Below, piece by piece: positions 7,813-15,531 of a stretch of 64,000 nucleotides of DNA (position 1 is its first letter; every line of letters begins with the position of its first letter). The translations under genes and the position numbers were made by a program. The stretch comes from Dehalococcoidia bacterium (GTDB taxonomy: Bacteria > Chloroflexota > Dehalococcoidia > Lucifugimonadales > UBA3495), in contig DAOUIF010000084.1 of NCBI GenBank assembly GCA_034423575.1, forward strand, positions 2,040-66,039, written 5' to 3'. Under the pieces are notes generated by a model. The model was not told the DNA's origin, ran no database searches, and was given only the letters and a program-made list of their open reading frames with translations.

Positions 7813-10007
7813 ACCCGGCGACGCAGGACAATTCGGAACGTCGCTCCGGCAAGGGGACCATTTTCCAGCAATTCGAGGTCCCCTGCGTAGTAGTCATTCA
7901 CTATCTCCCCGGCGATTGTCAATCCAAGTCCCACTCCGTTCGGTTTGGTGGAGAAATACGGGTCGAAAATTCGATCCCTGAAATCGGGACTCACACCGGG
8001 CCCGCTGTCTGAGAATACGACCTCCACTTCATCCGGCTCTCTTCGCCGCACGTGAACGGAGATTTGCCGGGTGTCCTGGGGCACATGACGCAACCAGTGC
8101 AGACTGTTTTGTAGGAGATTGATGACAACCTGCTGAATCTCTGCCTGGTCCACCGTGACCTGGGTCTTGGTATCCGGCAGGCTTATCTCCACTCCGACTT
8201 CCGCAATCTCGGTGTCGAGAACTGAAAAGGCATGCGCTATCACTTCCTCTAAAGAGACCAATCCCGGTCTCCCCCGCTTCCTTCCGCCAAATGGCTCGAT
8301 TTTTCTGAAGATGGTTGCCAGTGCGTCGGACTGGGTCACGATACCTCTGAATCTGTCCCCAAGTTTCACGATGGCGGCCATACTACCCTGACCCGACCGG
8401 TCCACGTCCCTTAGCCCTAGGACGGCCTCATTGTTTATTTTTGCCAGAGGCGCTCTGCCGTCATGCAGAACAACATCTATCAGCTGTCCGAGAGCAGCCA
8501 GACGGTGGTAGCGGGAAAGAACTTCCTGAATTCCCTGGGCGCGGGTTTCCAGTTCCCTTTCCGCATTCCCAACCAATTGCCTTAGATGATGGTCATCCGG
8601 GTGTTGGCGTTGCACATAATCGCGGACAGTCGCAAGGTCGAGGTCGGCAAAGAGGCCCCCGGCTTGCCGCCGCCGGGGTTGGGGAGTTGGATGACGGAGC
8701 TTGTACCTCCGAACCTCAAGTTCATGGAGGGTCATCTTGACCAACTCTCTGAGGCCGTCCAGAGGGGGGCCCTCGATGAGACCCTCCCGATTGCTCTGGT
8801 CCCTGAGATTCGGGTTTCCCTCGGATGAGATTAACACGTAGCCCAAGACCTGGTTGTTTGACAGTCGAAGTGTGGGGTTCTGCACACGACGCATATCCAG
8901 CCGCAACCAGTCATCGTCCGGTTCGCCGTAGGGCAGCACTCTGAACCCGTCCCGATAGATACTGATGCCGGCGCCATTGTCCAACATCCCCCTGACCTGG
9001 GAAACCGATTGGAACGAATGACGCTCCACCAGTTCGGCCATGGAAGTTGGGTCCCGGTCCCAAACCCGCAGTTCGACTCCTATGGGACCACATTCCGCCT
9101 CATGGCTTTTGGGGTTGAATTCGCCCTGAATTGACTCCTCGCTGCCTCCATCCCGCAGACCGATGTCAAAGTCATAGCGACCGTCCGCATTTATCGTGCC
9201 CTTCAATACGTAATGAGGACTACGGAGTAGTTCAGGAGGTTCGACGATACCGGACTGCTGTTCGAACGGCGGAGGAAGGTCAAGACACAGCTCGAATTGG
9301 TCATTCCTTGCTGACAGCTCGGCTCCAAAGAAGGGCGATACCAGGCGCGACAATCTGGTCCGCAGATCCTCAAATTCAGACCCGCTCCAGTTGCTCCGCA
9401 ACTGCTCCATTCGGAGGATTGTGCCGTGGGTCAGATCGTCCGGATTCGGCTCTCCACCGGAGTCCCACAGTCGTTCGACGATACCACCCGGTGCGAGTTC
9501 CGTGGGGTCTTCCTCCTCCCACAGAACCTCAATCTCGTCCAGGTATTTCCCCTCGTTGTCAAATTGCGCCCAGTCGAAATAGACTCGGGTTTCCTGCTCT
9601 GACTCCGCCCGACGGGTCACCACTTCAAGGAAGTTGGCCAAGCGTGAGGTGGCGAATCGCCCAATCCCTTTTTCTCCCAGAACGCGACGGCCCAATCGTT
9701 GGCTTCTCCGCTCCCGTTTCCTGGAGAGGGTGGCCGGCTCCATCCAGGTTGTCTGGATGGTTTCCAGCGACATTCCATGACCGTTGTCAATGACCTCGAC
9801 CTTCCCTTTCCCGATTTCGAGAGGCCCGTGAAATCTCACCAGTACCCTGGTGGCGTCGGCATCGTAGCAGTTCTTGACGAGCTCCATCAGCGCGACGGCT
9901 TCGCTGCTGATCAGTTCGTCGCCAAGAGTGCGAAGAATGCGGGCCCTCGGGCGAAGCGTGCTGGTCCCCGATGTGGAATTCGCTGTATCTGTCATCTCAA
10001 TGCCCAT
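7809..10007 (-). CDS. GHKL (MORC/MutL-like) ATPase fused to a sensor histidine kinase
   Basis: N-terminal GHKL motifs ELVKNCYDA, DNGHGM and GEKGIGRFA. C-terminal kinase has H-box VLHDGRAPL, N-box NLLQNS, DSGPG and FDPYFSTKPNGVGLGL. No transmembrane segments. Confidence 0.85.
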   Translation of the reverse strand: MGIEMTDTANSTSGTSTLRPRARILRTLGDELISSEAVALMELVKNCYDADATRVLVRFHGPLEIGKGKVEVIDNGHGMSLETIQTTWMEPATLSRKRERRSQRLGRRVLGEKGIGRFATSRLANFLEVVTRRAESEQETRVYFDWAQFDNEGKYLDEIEVLWEEEDPTELAPGGIVERLWDSGGEPNPDDLTHGTILRMEQLRSNWSGSEFEDLRTRLSRLVSPFFGAELSARNDQFELCLDLPPPFEQQSGIVEPPELLRSPHYVLKGTINADGRYDFDIGLRDGGSEESIQGEFNPKSHEAECGPIGVELRVWDRDPTSMAELVERHSFQSVSQVRGMLDNGAGISIYRDGFRVLPYGEPDDDWLRLDMRRVQNPTLRLSNNQVLGYVLISSEGNPNLRDQSNREGLIEGPPLDGLRELVKMTLHELEVRRYKLRHPTPQPRRRQAGGLFADLDLATVRDYVQRQHPDDHHLRQLVGNAERELETRAQGIQEVLSRYHRLAALGQLIDVVLHDGRAPLAKINNEAVLGLRDVDRSGQGSMAAIVKLGDRFRGIVTQSDALATIFRKIEPFGGRKRGRPGLVSLEEVIAHAFSVLDTEIAEVGVEISLPDTKTQVTVDQAEIQQVVINLLQNSLHWLRHVPQDTRQISVHVRRREPDEVEVVFSDSGPGVSPDFRDRIFDPYFSTKPNGVGLGLTIAGEIVNDYYAGDLELLENGPLAGATFRIVLRRRV

Positions 10008-10173: not shown

Positions 10174-10470
10174 TCAGGGATCGTGGTTTTTGGCTTGAGC
10201 CGCAAGGCATACCGAACACATCTGGATTGGCGTGAGCAGCCCGGGAGTCTGCTCCTCAGCACCGAGGGCCGTGACCAAATTGGGACCGCCGTAATGCCCG
10301 CAGATGGAACGTGTTGTTCCGTGGTCAGGGTCCTTGATGTGGTAGAGCCAATCCTGCAGGTAGAGTATCACCCGCTCTTGGATGTATTCATCGGGCGTCT
10401 GACCGTCGCACTCCGCCATGAAGTCCAAGGCTTCGGCCAAGTGGTCCGGGACATTGATCTTCGCTTTCAT
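10174..10470 (-). CDS. Small protein with ribbon-helix-helix-like N-terminus and possible Zn site
   Basis: MKAKINVPDHLAEALDFMAECDGQTPDEYI is an RHH-like pattern; ICGH and CSVC give Cys/His ligands. Confidence 0.45.
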   Translation of the reverse strand: MKAKINVPDHLAEALDFMAECDGQTPDEYIQERVILYLQDWLYHIKDPDHGTTRSICGHYGGPNLVTALGAEEQTPGLLTPIQMCSVCLAAQAKNHDP

Positions 10471-10915: not shown

Positions 10916-12835
10916 ATGGATAATCCTTCCGAAACTGCCCAAAAACCTTCGTCCTACAGACTGCCCACCCACCGGGGGGAACGGATAAAACTAGTCCCTC
11001 ACCAGATGTCGCCGGACCCGAACGACGGGGATGCCGTACGCAGGTGGTTGGAAGAACGCCCACGCCCTTGGGCGATAGACCTCTTCTGCGGCGCCGGCGG
11101 GTTGAGCCTGGGATTGGAGGAGGCGGGCTTCTCCGTCATCGCCGCGGCAGACTTCGACCCTGTTTCGACCGAAACCCATGCCGCTAATATTCAGAGTCTC
11201 ACCTGGACGGGGGATCTTGCCGATCCCTCTGCCTTCATTCACCAATTGGACGAATGGGGCATTGAAGACGTTGACCTCTTGGCGGGTGGTCCTCCCTGCC
11301 AGCCGTTCTCCAGGGCCGGCGTCTCCAAGATTGGGAACCTGGTTAGGACGGGCAACCGCAGGGTTCTCGATGACAGAGCCGACCTGTGGCGGAGTTTCTT
11401 TTCCGTTATTGACAGGTTGAATCCGAAGGCAATGCTATTTGAGAACGTTCCCGATTTCGCCCAAGCTCAGGGAGGGGCGTTGTTGGTTGCCCTGATGGAT
11501 GAGCTGAAGAGCCGTGAGTATGAAGTGCACGTGAAGATGCTGCAGGCGTGGCAGTATCGTGTTCCTCAGCATCGCTCACGTCTCTTTGTGGTGGGGATTG
11601 CAGGAAACGGGAAATTCGAGTGGCCCAAACCTCGGGGGAGGCAACCGACGGTGGGGCAGGCCATCGGTGACCTACCAGTGGTTCCTGCGGATACCAGGGA
11701 CGAAACCCAGGTGTATGAGAGTCCACCTTCCTCAGCACTGGCGAAGTCGCTCAGAAGGGGATTGCGAGGCGAGGAATCCCGGCGGATTCGGGACCATGTA
11801 ACTAGGGCGGTGCGGCCGGATGACGCGCTGATCTACTCGCAACTGAACCCCGGTGATACCTACCTGGACGTACCCGAAGATTCCAGGAGATACCGATCCG
11901 ATATTTTCAATGATAAGTATGTAAGGTTGTCCTTCGAAGGCCTGTCCAGGACCATTACCGCTCATATAGCCAAGGATGGTTACTGGTACATCCATCCGAG
12001 AGAGGACCGCACCCTCTCCATAAGGGAGGCGGCCAGAATTCAAACCTTTCCGGATGGATTCAGGTTTGCCGGACACCCGTCCAGCAGGTATCGGCAAATT
12101 GGCAACGCGGTTCCCCCGATGCTCGCTTCGGCCATAGCTTCGTCGGTGAAACAAGTCCTGGGCGACAGTCCAGTCCACTCGGTGGTCAGAGAGAGCAGGG
12201 CCGAATACAGGACTTCCTTTCGGGACAGCCTAATTCAATGGTTCAAGTGGAACAGGCGTGACTTTCCCTGGAGGCGCTCTGACCTGAATCCCTGGCAGAC
12301 CTTGTTGTTAGAAATGTGCCTCCACCGTACAAGGGCCGAGCAGGTGGCACAGGTGGCTGACGAACTACTCAGCCTGGGCAGTACGCCTGATTCTTTTCTG
12401 AACAACCTGGAGGTCCTCGAACCTTCGGTGGCCTCCCTCGGACTCCACTGGCGGTCCGCGAATCTTGGCGCTGCTGCCGAGTTCATCAGGGACAGTGCGG
12501 GCGGTCAGGTGCCTGACAACTGGCACGGAATGGTTGCCATCCCAGGCGTGGGTGATTACATAGCCTCCGCTGTTCTCTGTTTCGCTTTTGGTCGTTCCAG
12601 CGTGATCATGGACACCAACACGATGAGGATTGCTCGCAGGGTGTCGGGCAAGGGTCCCAAGCAACCGAAGTGGGAACTCAGGCTTTCGCTATATGAAATG
12701 GCCGGAACCGAGGGAGCGGATGCGCGGTGGAACCAGGCTCTCTTGGATTTGGGAGCTCTGGTCTGCACGGCACGTGCGCCCAAGTGCGGGAGCTGCCCGG
12801 TCCGCGATAATTGCCACACAGGTCTTGACAGGTAA
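10916..12835 (+). CDS. DNA (cytosine-5)-methyltransferase fused to an HhH-GPD [4Fe-4S] glycosylase (Mig-like)
   Basis: C5-MTase motifs FCGAGG, GGPPCQPFS, FENV, QHRSR and YRQIGNAVPP. C-terminal domain has RRDFPWR, EMCLHRTRA, IPGVGDYIA, MDTN and CTARAPKCGSCPVRDNC (Fe-S loop). Confidence 0.9.
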   Translation: MDNPSETAQKPSSYRLPTHRGERIKLVPHQMSPDPNDGDAVRRWLEERPRPWAIDLFCGAGGLSLGLEEAGFSVIAAADFDPVSTETHAANIQSLTWTGDLADPSAFIHQLDEWGIEDVDLLAGGPPCQPFSRAGVSKIGNLVRTGNRRVLDDRADLWRSFFSVIDRLNPKAMLFENVPDFAQAQGGALLVALMDELKSREYEVHVKMLQAWQYRVPQHRSRLFVVGIAGNGKFEWPKPRGRQPTVGQAIGDLPVVPADTRDETQVYESPPSSALAKSLRRGLRGEESRRIRDHVTRAVRPDDALIYSQLNPGDTYLDVPEDSRRYRSDIFNDKYVRLSFEGLSRTITAHIAKDGYWYIHPREDRTLSIREAARIQTFPDGFRFAGHPSSRYRQIGNAVPPMLASAIASSVKQVLGDSPVHSVVRESRAEYRTSFRDSLIQWFKWNRRDFPWRRSDLNPWQTLLLEMCLHRTRAEQVAQVADELLSLGSTPDSFLNNLEVLEPSVASLGLHWRSANLGAAAEFIRDSAGGQVPDNWHGMVAIPGVGDYIASAVLCFAFGRSSVIMDTNTMRIARRVSGKGPKQPKWELRLSLYEMAGTEGADARWNQALLDLGALVCTARAPKCGSCPVRDNCHTGLDR

Positions 12836-12931: not shown

Positions 12932-14356
12932 ATGAGAGCCTTTAACCGAATAACGCGCGCGATTCCTACCTGGATTTGGCTAACGCTTTTAATAGCGCTC
13001 ACCCTATTGGTCGGGGGTGTGGTCTCATATCGGTATTGGGTTGACCTGGGCGCTCCAGATGAGTCCGGCAGCACGACCATCCGAAATATCGTCTTGGTTC
13101 TAGCAGGGTTTATCGCTCTAGTCCTAGCTTTGTGGCGAGGAGCAATAGGTGAGCGGCAGGCGTCGGCGGCAGAGCGAACCGTTTTGGACGGACGCTACCA
13201 GCGTGGGATCGAGATGCTTGCCGGCGATAGCCTCTCTTCCCGTCTAGGTGGCATTTACTCGCTCCGGAACTTGGCCGAGAGCCAACCGGAACAGTACCAC
13301 ATCCAGATCATGCGGGTGTTCTGTGCCTTTGTTCGTCACCCCCCGCTGTACAACCCCGAGGAGGAAGAACGCGACTCCGGCAGAGCCGAGGCAGAAGCCA
13401 GCCCAAGAAGACACGTTCACGGTCGTCCCCGAGCGCGAGCGGACATTCAGGCCGTGATGGACGCTATCGGCTTACGCTCTGAGGCTGGAATTGAGATCGA
13501 GAAGAGGGCCGGTTTCGTGATTGACCTTAACGGGGCGGACTTATCGTGGACCCACCTTGAGAAGGCCGACCTTTCCAATGCAGACCTCACGTTTGCAAAT
13601 CTGTTTCGCGCCGTGTTCTACGAGTGGCGTCGTGGTTTCCCGCCTCCGCGCAGTTGGTTCTGCCTGAAACTGCGCGAGTTCAACCCAGGTAAGGAAAGGC
13701 CTCAGCCCGACAATTACTCGAACGAGAAGGGCTGGAGGCGGACATACACTGCCAAACTGTCAGGAGCAGACCTCTCCTACGCGAATCTGACCAGAGCCAG
13801 AATGGAGCACGTCAACCTATCGGAAGCGCAAATCAGGGAGGCAACGCTTTCCGGCGTCTGGCTTAGACACGCGAACCTGCGAGGGGCGAATTTGTTTGAG
13901 TCGAACTTGTCCCCCGCTGGTTCGATACCTATGGACTTGGGAGCAGATTTGACCGGAGCAGACCTGACAGACGCAAGCTTGGCTGGCAGCAACTGCTCTA
14001 TGGTCGAAATGGGAGCGGCGATTTTGCATGGGACCGGATTTGCCAGGGCAATACTCTGGGCCACAATGCTGAACAGTGCCGAATTTACAGACAAAGGTCG
14101 GCACGCGCCCGTTGGTCTTACTCAGGAACAACTAGACCAGGCCATCGTGGTTGCTGGAAATTACCCCGACTTGGAGGGGGTCGTGGATGCTCGAACTGGC
14201 GAGCAGTTGGCCTGGCGGGAGACCTTTTCCCGCGAAGTGAAGCTCGGCCGGGCGGGTCACTCGGAGGAGGACGAGGATGAAGACAAGGGCGACGGAGATT
14301 GTGCAGATGATGTGGAGGATGGTGAAGACGAACATCCGGCAGATTCCCGGAATTAG
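12932..14356 (+). CDS. Membrane-anchored pentapeptide-repeat protein
   Basis: Two N-terminal hydrophobic helices, RLGGIYSL segment, A(D/N)LxxA(D/N)L repeats and an acidic tail. Confidence 0.85.
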   Translation: MRAFNRITRAIPTWIWLTLLIALTLLVGGVVSYRYWVDLGAPDESGSTTIRNIVLVLAGFIALVLALWRGAIGERQASAAERTVLDGRYQRGIEMLAGDSLSSRLGGIYSLRNLAESQPEQYHIQIMRVFCAFVRHPPLYNPEEEERDSGRAEAEASPRRHVHGRPRARADIQAVMDAIGLRSEAGIEIEKRAGFVIDLNGADLSWTHLEKADLSNADLTFANLFRAVFYEWRRGFPPPRSWFCLKLREFNPGKERPQPDNYSNEKGWRRTYTAKLSGADLSYANLTRARMEHVNLSEAQIREATLSGVWLRHANLRGANLFESNLSPAGSIPMDLGADLTGADLTDASLAGSNCSMVEMGAAILHGTGFARAILWATMLNSAEFTDKGRHAPVGLTQEQLDQAIVVAGNYPDLEGVVDARTGEQLAWRETFSREVKLGRAGHSEEDEDEDKGDGDCADDVEDGEDEHPADSRN

Positions 14357-14378
14357 CTGATAGAATGAAAACCGCCTG

Positions 14379-14404
14379 GTAGGTGGAGTAGTAGCTCCGC
14401 CTAC
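14379..14404 (+). terminator. Hairpin after the pentapeptide gene
   Basis: gtaggtggag-tagtag-ctccgcctac. Confidence 0.4.
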
Positions 14405-14496
14405 TTGAGGGAGGCTCCCAACCATATTTCAGAGATGGTTCCGCTTACCGCCTCATCTGCCTCCCTATGATTCCCTCCCACTCAATGCAGCCATAG

Positions 14497-15531
14497 GTGA
14501 ACGAAATGAACACACGGTTTGACGTCGCATACTACTACCCAGCTCCTTATTGGGGCATTGCTGAAGGCGGGTGGGTGAAGTCGTTGCTTCTGTTCTTTGA
14601 TAAGGTTTCGATCCTGCTTCCGGATTATATGTATGGCCGACACCATGCAGCCGATCCCGTGTTAGCCGAGCCGCTTGAGGACCAAGGTCTACTGGAAGTC
14701 CTCGAACCGAAGATGTGGATTGATGAGGAAATGGCGAAGAGCTTAGCCGAAGCCATCAGCGGTTTGCTTGACAGCGGCGTGTTCGACGGGGTTTCCAATG
14801 ACGTTCGTTTCCACGAACTGTCCCAATCACGAATAGGTTATGGAGCTAACGTTGACTTGGCTGATTCGCTGGTATCAGAACTCCGGGCGAAGGGATTAGC
14901 AAAACCCAGTGAGGATGGCGTGTCGATACCTCTTCACCCAATGGTGCGCACAACTATCCTAGTCATACTGGCCCAACTCGCGCGCTCGGCAGGCAACAAG
15001 CAGAACCTGTTAGTGCATCCAGCTACCAATGACGGTCACGCCCTGCATGACCTCATTGAGACTCTTTCGAGGGAGCGAATGCCGTCGCGTGAAAGTGTAA
15101 TCGCTTTCGACCTCGAACCCGTTAGCTTCAACATGGACTCTGTACCGCTTGATGAACTCTTGCAATTCCGGGCCGAGCACCAAGCCGCCCACAAAGCATA
15201 CATGCGAGACCTGCGGGGATTCATGGCTGAGCTCGCCGACGTTAGCCACCCAGAGGAGCGTAAAACCCTCCTCCTACAACGTCGCCAGGATATGGCCGAC
15301 GCCGCCCACGATCTTCAGCGCTCCACCAGACGGGCATTGGGGAGGAACCTTCCCTCATGGTCGTTCGGACTTGCCGGCGGCGTTTGGTCAGCTGCTACAG
15401 GTGACCCACTAGGTCTGATTCTCGGTGCATTGGGGCTAGCCACTGGTATCGTCGGCTCTAGGAGCACCGATCCCAACAAAGTATCTGCCTACTCTTACCT
15501 GTTTCAAGCGGGACGCACCCTTGCGAGATAG
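14497..15531 (+). CDS. Hypothetical protein (DUF6236-like) with a C-terminal Gly-rich hydrophobic hairpin
   Basis: 344-aa ORF; N-terminal YYP...WVKSLLLFFDKV pattern; C-terminal FGLAGGVWSAATGDPLGLILGALGLATGIVG. Confidence 0.6.
   Translation: MNEMNTRFDVAYYYPAPYWGIAEGGWVKSLLLFFDKVSILLPDYMYGRHHAADPVLAEPLEDQGLLEVLEPKMWIDEEMAKSLAEAISGLLDSGVFDGVSNDVRFHELSQSRIGYGANVDLADSLVSELRAKGLAKPSEDGVSIPLHPMVRTTILVILAQLARSAGNKQNLLVHPATNDGHALHDLIETLSRERMPSRESVIAFDLEPVSFNMDSVPLDELLQFRAEHQAAHKAYMRDLRGFMAELADVSHPEERKTLLLQRRQDMADAAHDLQRSTRRALGRNLPSWSFGLAGGVWSAATGDPLGLILGALGLATGIVGSRSTDPNKVSAYSYLFQAGRTLAR

Follow-up and report, generated by a model that had tools for sequence, protein, structure and literature searches.

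A C5-cytosine methyltransferase fused to a Mig/MutY-family glycosylase in a defense cassette of a Dehalococcoidia bacterium: a candidate self-repairing methylase

A stretch of 64,000 nucleotides from a Dehalococcoidia bacterium (contig DAOUIF010000084.1, positions 2,040 to 66,039), referred to here as the window, was found to encode a C5-cytosine methyltransferase (MTase) and a helix-hairpin-helix (HhH), [4Fe-4S] DNA glycosylase as a single polypeptide of 639 amino acids (aa). The open reading frame (ORF) lies at 10916..12835 on the + strand, with an ATG start and the stop codon counted. Its active-site residues are intact, it is under purifying selection, its relatives are recurrently linked to defense genes, and the window is devoid of a vsr gene. 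We propose, at a probability of roughly 0.6, that the methylase marks self DNA for a paraMORC-type system, that the tethered glycosylase removes thymine or uracil opposite guanine, and that base excision repair (BER) by the host restores the cytosine.

Results

Domain organization of the fusion protein

The protein begins with a conserved N-terminal extension (aa 1-53, 10916..11074; this and all coordinates in the present section are on the + strand) with which homologues align from residue 1. Within it G21, L26, and W44 are invariant in close homologues, and aa 1-18 have a predicted local distance difference test (pLDDT) score below 50 in the AlphaFold model. The MTase domain that follows (aa 54-412, 11075..12151) was assigned by Pfam and NCBIfam profiles and by its motifs. 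It matches Pfam DNA_methylase (PF00145) at 2e-56, with 192 bits versus a cutoff of 22, and passes TIGR00675 with 174 bits versus a cutoff of 100.65. Motif I (DLFCGAGGLSLG, DLFCGAGG) is found at 11078-11113, motif IV (GGPPCQPFS) at 11285-11311, motif VI (FENVP) at 11438-11452, motif VIII (QHRSRLF) at 11567-11587, motif IX at 12008-12055, and motif X (GNAVPP) at 12101-12118. The MTase core is mostly confident in the AlphaFold model, except around the motif IV loop (aa ~127-160), and the large target recognition domain (TRD, about aa 235-375) is poorly modeled. When the MTase was compared with solved structures, DNMT1, M.HaeIII, and M.HhaI resembled it in the core motifs only, and the TRD matched nothing of known specificity.

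A disordered, fast-evolving linker (aa 413-434, 12152..12217; pLDDT below 50 at aa 418-432) leads into the glycosylase domain (aa 435-639, 12218..12832), which is modeled with pLDDT values of 80-94. The hallmarks of the HhH/[4Fe-4S] superfamily are all present, namely G544-V-G546, D566, and C617/624/627/633. Catalytic Glu466 is encoded at 12311-12313 and catalytic Asp566 at 12611-12613. The GVG-D-Tyr548 portion of the HhH element lies at 12539-12574, with GVGDYIASAVLCFAFG at aa 544-559 and G544 and G546 as the hairpin glycines. The [4Fe-4S] loop, C617-X6-C624-X2-C627-X5-C633 (12764..12814), coincides with a match to Pfam EndIII_4Fe-2S at aa 617-633, and the protein terminates six residues beyond the last cysteine. 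A fold search with the full-length model returned matches to the MTase only and no solved structure having both domains.

Active-site residues of the glycosylase domain

The reference for Mig.MthI, a T/G-U/G glycosylase of Methanothermobacter, was the 1KEA chain, which was found through a motif-biased PDB query. Its motifs are DRRDFPWR, E42-ILLR-R47-TT-A50, GVGKYTCAAVMCLAFG, and FN-L187-GL, in agreement with those that an initial annotation of the window had given. The strings that this annotation had quoted from the window itself, NRRDFPWR, E466-MCLH-R471-TR-A474, GVGDYIASAVLCFAFG, and N606-Q607-AL, were likewise all located. Alignment with the references places Arg471 (12326-12328), five residues after the catalytic Glu (E+5), on Mig.MthI R47, and Ala474 (12335-12337), at E+8, on A50, as had been noted there. 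The sequence given for Escherichia coli MutY (EcMutY), EVMLQQTQV, was correct as well (PMC2714593). In EcMutY, in Geobacillus MutY, and in all NUDIX_4-bearing proteins that were scanned, Gln occupies E+5 and Val occupies E+8; the window protein has His-Arg where MutY has QQ (E+4/E+5) and Ala where MutY has Val45.

Tyr548 aligns with Y126 of Mig, which has been proposed to hydrogen-bond with thymine O2 (PMC2714593); E. coli Nth has Lys at this position. The lyase Lys that Nth- and DEMETER-type enzymes carry in the second helix of the HhH is not present in the window protein, Tyr548 standing in its place, and the enzyme is therefore predicted to be monofunctional.

Conservation and distribution of the fusion

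The coupling of the two domains, already proposed in the initial annotation, is conserved well beyond this genome. In a protein database, more than 120 clusters match the full-length fusion at 68-93% identity and ~100% coverage; where these carry a name, the sole label is "DNA (cytosine-5-)-methyltransferase." A scan with one genome per species yielded 486 related stretches, and the best 80 loci were examined and form the basis of all counts out of 80 given below. The full-length fusion is present in at least 74 of them. Their hosts belong to Dehalococcoidia and other Chloroflexota, to Solirubrobacterales, Gaiellaceae, Acidimicrobiales, Euzebyales, and Dormibacteria, and to a small number of other groups. 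The closest counterpart, in a sponge-associated Chloroflexi metagenome-assembled genome (MAG; locus L001), is ~95% identical to the window fusion gene, and complete MAG chromosomes from long reads also contain this architecture. At least one genome, from Dehalococcoidia, holds two copies (L025 and L026), which are paralogues in different contexts.

Glu466, Asp566, the HhH G-V-G, the four cysteines, and MTase residues Cys128 and Glu176 are near-invariant in 71-75 relatives, and the glycosylase residues among these are also near-invariant in 49 close homologues. The ORF has no stop or frameshift. Compared with two close relatives, the ratio of nonsynonymous to synonymous substitution rates (dN/dS) is 0.19-0.20 in the glycosylase and 0.08-0.11 in the MTase, against 0.6-1.0 in the linker. 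An assembly artefact, which the initial annotation had kept in view, and a decaying domain are both ruled out by the wide conservation, the long-read genomes, and the purifying selection.

No MTase-glycosylase fusion was found in a plasmid collection. A full-text literature search, beyond whose reach lay REBASE and subscription literature, returned no description of the bacterial fusion, and a review of noncatalytic domains in glycosylases makes no mention of an MTase-glycosylase fusion. Such architectures are reportedly among those that Iyer, Abhiman and Aravind may have listed in 2011.

Other associations of glycosylases with C5-MTases

The nearest relatives past the fusion family, as revealed by an exhaustive search of 1.8 billion representatives, are mostly proteins of 210-250 aa that score 116-148 bits, above MutY and Mig. 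Arg or Lys occupies E+5 in 79 of 94 of these short forms, and Ala occupies E+8 in 74 of 94. We considered whether all short matches are stand-alone Mig-like proteins and rejected this, as some are contig-end fragments of fusions. Protein P0132 is probably one such truncated fusion, because it runs off the contig end and a HATPase_c_3 gene follows it; P0125 is a genuine stand-alone protein with no dcm neighbor.

Short homologues adjoin dcm on plasmids of Caldicellulosiruptor, Thermus, and Haloplanus; a homologue on a Gloeothece plasmid is not adjacent to dcm. On Thermus thermophilus plasmid pTthSNM7-6d (L090:4001-4588) the Mig-like ORF, which is missing from the gene table of the plasmid, begins 5 bp past the stop codon of dcm, and an IS1634 transposase comes after it.

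Two further proteins, P0218 (580 aa) and P0228 (554 aa), have the reverse order, with an N-terminal HhH glycosylase and a C-terminal C5-MTase. They fall outside the clade of the window protein and keep the Lys/Arg plus Ala signature, which suggests that a glycosylase and a C5-MTase have been joined at least twice independently and in both orders. Repeated fusion of this kind points, by the classical Rosetta-stone argument, to a shared pathway.

Gene neighborhood of the fusion

The fusion adjoins Mza-like, DISARM-like, or histidine-kinase-like/response-regulator-like (HK-like/RR-like) genes in 71 of the 80 loci, made up of 68 with a recognizable cassette and three with a HATPase_c_3 gene alone. 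The counts by type overlap, since some loci hold two cassette types. An Mza-like HATPase_c_3/Z1/DUF4420/AIPR cassette is present in 49/80 loci, a DISARM-like helicase plus MZB/DUF1998 cassette in 13/80, and an HK-like gene in 11/80. In the 13 DISARM-like operons (for example L021 and L026) the order is NERD/UvrD helicase, 1127-aa DEAD-type helicase, MZB/DUF1998, and the fusion last. Of the remaining nine loci, which lack a recognized partner, five offer little flanking sequence and four match only in part. Both this defense-cassette context and the wide distribution of the family had been missed by the initial annotation.

Classical forms of the Mza-like and HK-like/RR-like cassettes carry separate Dcm and Vsr proteins. 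The Mza-like form on a Rhizobium plasmid reads vsr-dcm-ATPase-Z1-PD(D/E)XK, and Dcm with Vsr was reported as a regular feature of MORC and paraMORC neighborhoods (Iyer et al. 2008, PMC2292703). Because the linkage to cassettes recurs and the classical forms carry Dcm with Vsr, we conclude that the fusion gene is the modification, or self-marking, module of multi-gene defense cassettes. In the window itself the fusion gene would serve this role in a paraMORC-type cassette.

The partners in the window are two genes on the - strand, on the upstream side of the fusion gene and transcribed divergently from it. One (7809..10007) encodes an HK-like paraMORC protein of 732 aa with an N-terminal HATPase_c_3 domain, a histidine-kinase-like middle, and a C-terminal HATPase_c domain. 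The other (6601..7812) encodes an RR-like protein of 403 aa with a REC domain, a helical linker, and a beta-rich C-terminal domain. Such a pair lies beside the fusion in 11-13 of the 80 loci, with identity down to 40-50% and varying gene orders, and the window pair shows full-length homology to a pair linked to dcm on a plasmid of Hymenobacter (4e-97 for the HK-like protein). The makeup of the HEF_HK/Response_reg_2 cassette is thus present, with a HATPase_c_3, HK core, and HATPase_c protein, its REC partner, and an adjoining C5-MTase. Searches with Pfam PF19191 and PF19192 gave no match for the window pair at E<=5 and none for the Hymenobacter pair at E<=0.01, so that the profile library used may lack these models or hold versions of them that are too narrow. 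The window pair corresponds to the elements derived from paraMORCs that Bellieny-Rabelo et al. (2021) described as HK-like/RR-like, which have a conserved upstream C5-MTase and frequently Vsr (PMC8011034). A glycosylase is never mentioned for these elements in that paper, and neither it nor the earlier work (PMC8011034, PMC2292703) mentions an MTase-glycosylase fusion.

The C-terminal domain of the RR-like protein (aa ~244-360) matches MazF/MoxT-type mRNA interferases with target-normalized TM-scores of 0.60-0.73 and a Foldseek probability of 1.00. The AlphaFold model has a pLDDT of 78, and an invariant P-S-C-D motif is found at residues 262-265. No further known domain was reported for the RR-like family in 2021 (PMC8011034). 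The protein may be a phospho-regulated toxin effector, for which we take the MazF-like fold of the model as a lead only. In the 900-bp divergent intergenic region a small ORF of 98 aa (10174..10470, - strand) is conserved in the two closest relatives only (98% and 78% identity). Its N-terminus, KINVPDHLAEALD, is ribbon-helix-helix-like in appearance, and no entry of Pfam, NCBIfam, or the PDB matches the ORF; it is a possible regulator whose belonging to the system is uncertain.

Relation to Vsr

The initial annotation had seen no vsr gene nearby, and this holds for the whole 64-kb window, in which tblastn with the E. coli and Rhizobium Vsr proteins found none at E<=1. The same search detected Vsr in 13 of the 80 loci, at 33-42% identity, all of them in a distant (40-51% identity) Actinomycetota-type branch whose typical gene order is fusion, HATPase_c_3, Vsr, Z1. 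In Solirubrobacterales-type cassettes (L077:7890-14345, L063, L061, L057, L040, L079, and others) this order continues with DUF4420.

The pocket in the Vsr-bearing loci is mostly D/R or P/R and not A/Q or A/Y, with the catalytic residues kept. An Ala-type pocket occurs without Vsr in 55 cases and with it in two, and a non-Ala pocket with Vsr in nine and without it in five; Vsr is therefore anticorrelated with the Ala-type pocket (Fisher p = 1.3e-6, not corrected for phylogeny). We read this as an indication that an Ala-type domain, as in the window, covers the Vsr function, and that in the variant-pocket branch, where Vsr is retained, this function was either lost or altered. The extra glycosylase domain occupies the slot where Vsr normally stands. 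That the fusion replaces Vsr, as the initial annotation put it, is a valid description of the branch to which the window belongs, where vsr is absent and the classical cassettes carry Dcm with Vsr; it is not a general rule, as 13 loci hold both.

Other genes in the window

The G+C content is 0.54-0.58 over the first 16 kb of the window and 0.60-0.65 beyond, and this step at ~16000 fits horizontal acquisition of the first ~16 kb as a defense island. No tRNA gene was found within the 64 kb. On the same side of the fusion as the HK-like/RR-like pair, another defense system occupies 124-5208 on the + strand. It comprises an ORF matching the C-terminal half of the "6A-MBL system MBL-fold protein" (124-795), an E2-E1-JAB "cap2_3" protein (792-3176; NF058523, 2e-103, above cutoff), a second MBL-fold (metallo-beta-lactamase) protein (3214-4065; PADLOC PDC-M48B, 8e-90), and a patatin-like phospholipase (4066-5208). 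A 174-aa ORF on the - strand (5449-5973), just beyond the RR-like gene and so adjoining a system that writes 5-methylcytosine (5mC), matches the PADLOC entry "Type II methyl-directed restriction enzyme" at 3.5e-32 and has no Pfam or NCBIfam family.

Downstream of the fusion, 12932-15531 (+ strand) encodes a 474-aa pentapeptide-repeat protein with apparent N-terminal membrane helices and a 344-aa protein without a family. These genes differ from those downstream in the closest relatives (L001 and L002), so that conservation of the unit stops with the fusion gene. A sigma-70 promoter scan around the fusion gene gave no match, and a terminator scan of the same region gave a single terminator-like site, inside the ORF. 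Over- and under-representation of k-mers across the 64 kb revealed no methylated-motif or very-short-patch-like signature, only generic depletion of CTAG, GATC, CGCG, and GGCC.

Discussion

Deamination converts 5mC to thymine, and C5-MTases also promote the conversion of cytosine to uracil at their own sites. In the mechanism we propose, the N-terminal C5-MTase would methylate a DNA motif and so mark self DNA for a cassette composed of the HK-like GHKL ATPase and the RR-like effector, with repair built into the methylase. Deamination would leave T:G or U:G mismatches exactly at the sites that the enzyme recognizes. The tethered, putatively monofunctional Mig-type glycosylase would then remove the thymine, or uracil, opposite guanine, and AP (apurinic/apyrimidinic) endonuclease, polymerase, and ligase of the host would restore the cytosine, open to methylation once more. 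In the branch of the window the glycosylase would supply the job that Vsr does in the classical versions of the cassette. The assignment of T:G activity draws on this context, and both the T/U:G substrate and its coupling to the MTase target site are offered on that footing.

Some C5-MTases bind mismatched target bases more tightly. A doubtful extension of the proposal is that the MTase acts as a site reader that finds deaminated sites and passes the flipped thymine or uracil to the glycosylase, in a "write and proof-read" manner within a single polypeptide. On this view the glycosylase of the sister branch, with its D/R pocket and retained Vsr, would have been retargeted to another substrate, possibly with an offensive role in defense.

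Several points weigh against the mechanism of methylation with built-in repair and are taken here together with the alternatives that draw on them. The substrate of all family members is assigned from sequence and context, and a vsr gene could sit elsewhere in the genome, beyond the 64 kb searched. In addition, the 13 loci that hold both the fusion and Vsr have no second dcm, and in several of them the two genes share one operon, so that the two are not strictly interchangeable.

This sharing of cassettes lends itself to a reading that we regard as quite unlikely, in which the glycosylase has an offensive or other non-repair role, restricting unmethylated or foreign-modified DNA, or has been neofunctionalized at least in the branch that keeps Vsr. 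That restriction can work through base excision is already known (cited in PMC12707154). The locus is a defense island, and in the Vsr-bearing branch the pocket diverges to D/R or P/R as the catalytic residues stay. Dedicated effector cassettes, however, stand beside the fusion in 68 of the 80 loci, two of the cassette types have in their classical forms a plain Dcm, often together with Vsr, and the branch of the window has a Mig-type Ala pocket and no Vsr. Known restriction glycosylases also differ in fold.

We consider it very unlikely that the C-terminal domain is a truncated MutY-like adenine glycosylase acting on A:G, and weakly on A:8-oxoguanine (8-oxoG), with no specific tie to 5mC deamination, notwithstanding that its best PDB and NCBIfam matches are to MutY. 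In raw score it gives 99.4 bits with Geobacillus MutY, 97.5 with Mig.MthI, and ~55 with EndoIII. Gln607 (12734-12736) corresponds to EcMutY Q182, whereas Mig has L187, which lines the thymine-methyl pocket; the initial annotation had been right on this difference. The position is Q in 41, Y in 15, R in nine, and L in two members of the fusion family, and mostly L, Y, or W in the short forms. Six of seven adenine-pocket residues of EcMutY (R, E, L, N, Q, and D) are kept, a set common to Mig as well. A neighbor-joining tree with Mig, MutY, and Nth, a comparison suggested in the initial annotation, did place the fusion glycosylase domains in a clade of their own; it did not pair them with Mig over MutY, the fusion clade joining Mig in 26 of 60 bootstrap replicates and MutY in 24, and Mig joining MutY in the other 10.

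The MutY assignment nonetheless fails at several points. The match to NCBIfam mutY TIGR01084 (aa 435-634, 1.4e-35) spans profile positions 2-207 of 277 and reaches 123 bits, far under the equivalog cutoff of 286.5, and no C-terminal NUDIX-like, 8-oxoG-recognizing domain is found in the 639-aa protein, whereas NUDIX_4 is present in all true MutY proteins scanned. The QQ dipeptide is replaced by HR and Val45 by Ala, and in EcMutY the V45A substitution, which yields the Ala plus Gln combination of the window, led to a loss of A/G and A/8-oxoG activity and a gain in T/G affinity; conversely, A50V/L187Q moved the preference of Mig toward A/G (PMC2714593). By analogy, this mutagenesis supports T/G recognition by an Ala plus Gln pocket. 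A MutY-like enzyme would also give no reason for the recurrent linkage to C5-MTases and the two independent fusions with them. EcMutY V45A bound T/G without cleavage (PMC2714593), and the Ala plus Gln combination is therefore no guarantee of thymine excision. Taken by itself, the sequence leans toward a Mig-type enzyme and does not settle the substrate.

That binding without cleavage was tight, and GHKL/MutL-type proteins work with mismatch-recognizing partners (PMC2292703), so a catalytically silent domain that binds DNA, or senses mismatches or redox state through its [4Fe-4S] cluster, to position or regulate the methylase or the GHKL partner can be conceived, but it is highly improbable, since a binding-only module would not be expected to keep the catalytic Glu and Asp near-invariant across phyla with a dN/dS of about 0.2.

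Every C5-methylase loads its host with C-to-T mutations because 5mC is intrinsically mutagenic. Two answers to this load are known: in bacteria Vsr nicks the DNA, and one plasmid system of archaea relies on the Mig.MthI glycosylase. The present analysis suggests that a third arrangement, in which methylase and glycosylase form one protein, is common among Chloroflexota, Actinomycetota, and Dormibacterota, where at least three different anti-phage cassettes carry it as their self-marking module. Should the proposed mechanism hold, the family would be a clean natural example of the non-homologous displacement of Vsr and a compact natural scaffold linking sequence-specific DNA recognition to base excision, and hundreds of genes now called only "DNA cytosine methyltransferase" would need re-annotation. 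The complementarity between pocket and Vsr also provides a testable handle on thymine versus adenine specificity in the MutY/Mig family, a question that published mutagenesis left unsettled (PMC2714593).

Comparison with known systems

The pairing of a C5-MTase with a dedicated T:G repair enzyme is a known principle, exemplified by Dcm-Vsr and M.MthTI-Mig.MthI. What appears new, as none of it was found in our literature search, is that the two enzymes are covalently joined, that the fusion is broadly distributed and serves several cassettes as their modification module, that fusions in the reverse order exist, and that Vsr and pocket type are complementary.

With the HEF_HK/Response_reg_2 elements the window shares the architecture of the neighboring genes, their adjacency to the MTase, and full-length homologues on the Hymenobacter plasmid; it differs in having no Vsr, in a MTase that bears a glycosylase, and in the divergent arrangement of the genes. 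MutY belongs to the same catalytic-domain family and has the same Fe-S loop, the best raw score, and the equivalent of Gln607 (Gln182), whereas the window protein lacks its C-terminal 8-oxoG-recognition domain, its Val45, and its QQ dipeptide and falls below the family cutoff. Dcm-Vsr has the same proposed job, the repair of T:G at the MTase's own sites, and fills the same slot in the Mza/paraMORC and HEF_HK/Response_reg_2 cassettes. Vsr, in contrast, is a separate PD-(D/E)XK nicking endonuclease that is not homologous to the glycosylase, and it would be followed by nick-directed resynthesis where the fusion would be followed by BER.

Mig.MthI is reportedly encoded on plasmid pFV1 beside M.MthTI, a C5-methylase of GGCC, according to work of Horst and Fritz from 1996. 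Its published role is to counter 5mC deamination (PMC2714593). Like the glycosylase of the window it is an HhH, [4Fe-4S], monofunctional enzyme of similar size with no NUDIX domain, and equivalents of its E42, R47, A50, Y126, and D144 are all present in the window protein, as is the linkage to a C5-MTase. The window glycosylase, ~30-35% identical to it, differs in carrying Gln versus Leu at the equivalent of position 187, in its mesophilic bacterial lineage and defense-cassette setting, and in being covalently fused to its MTase.

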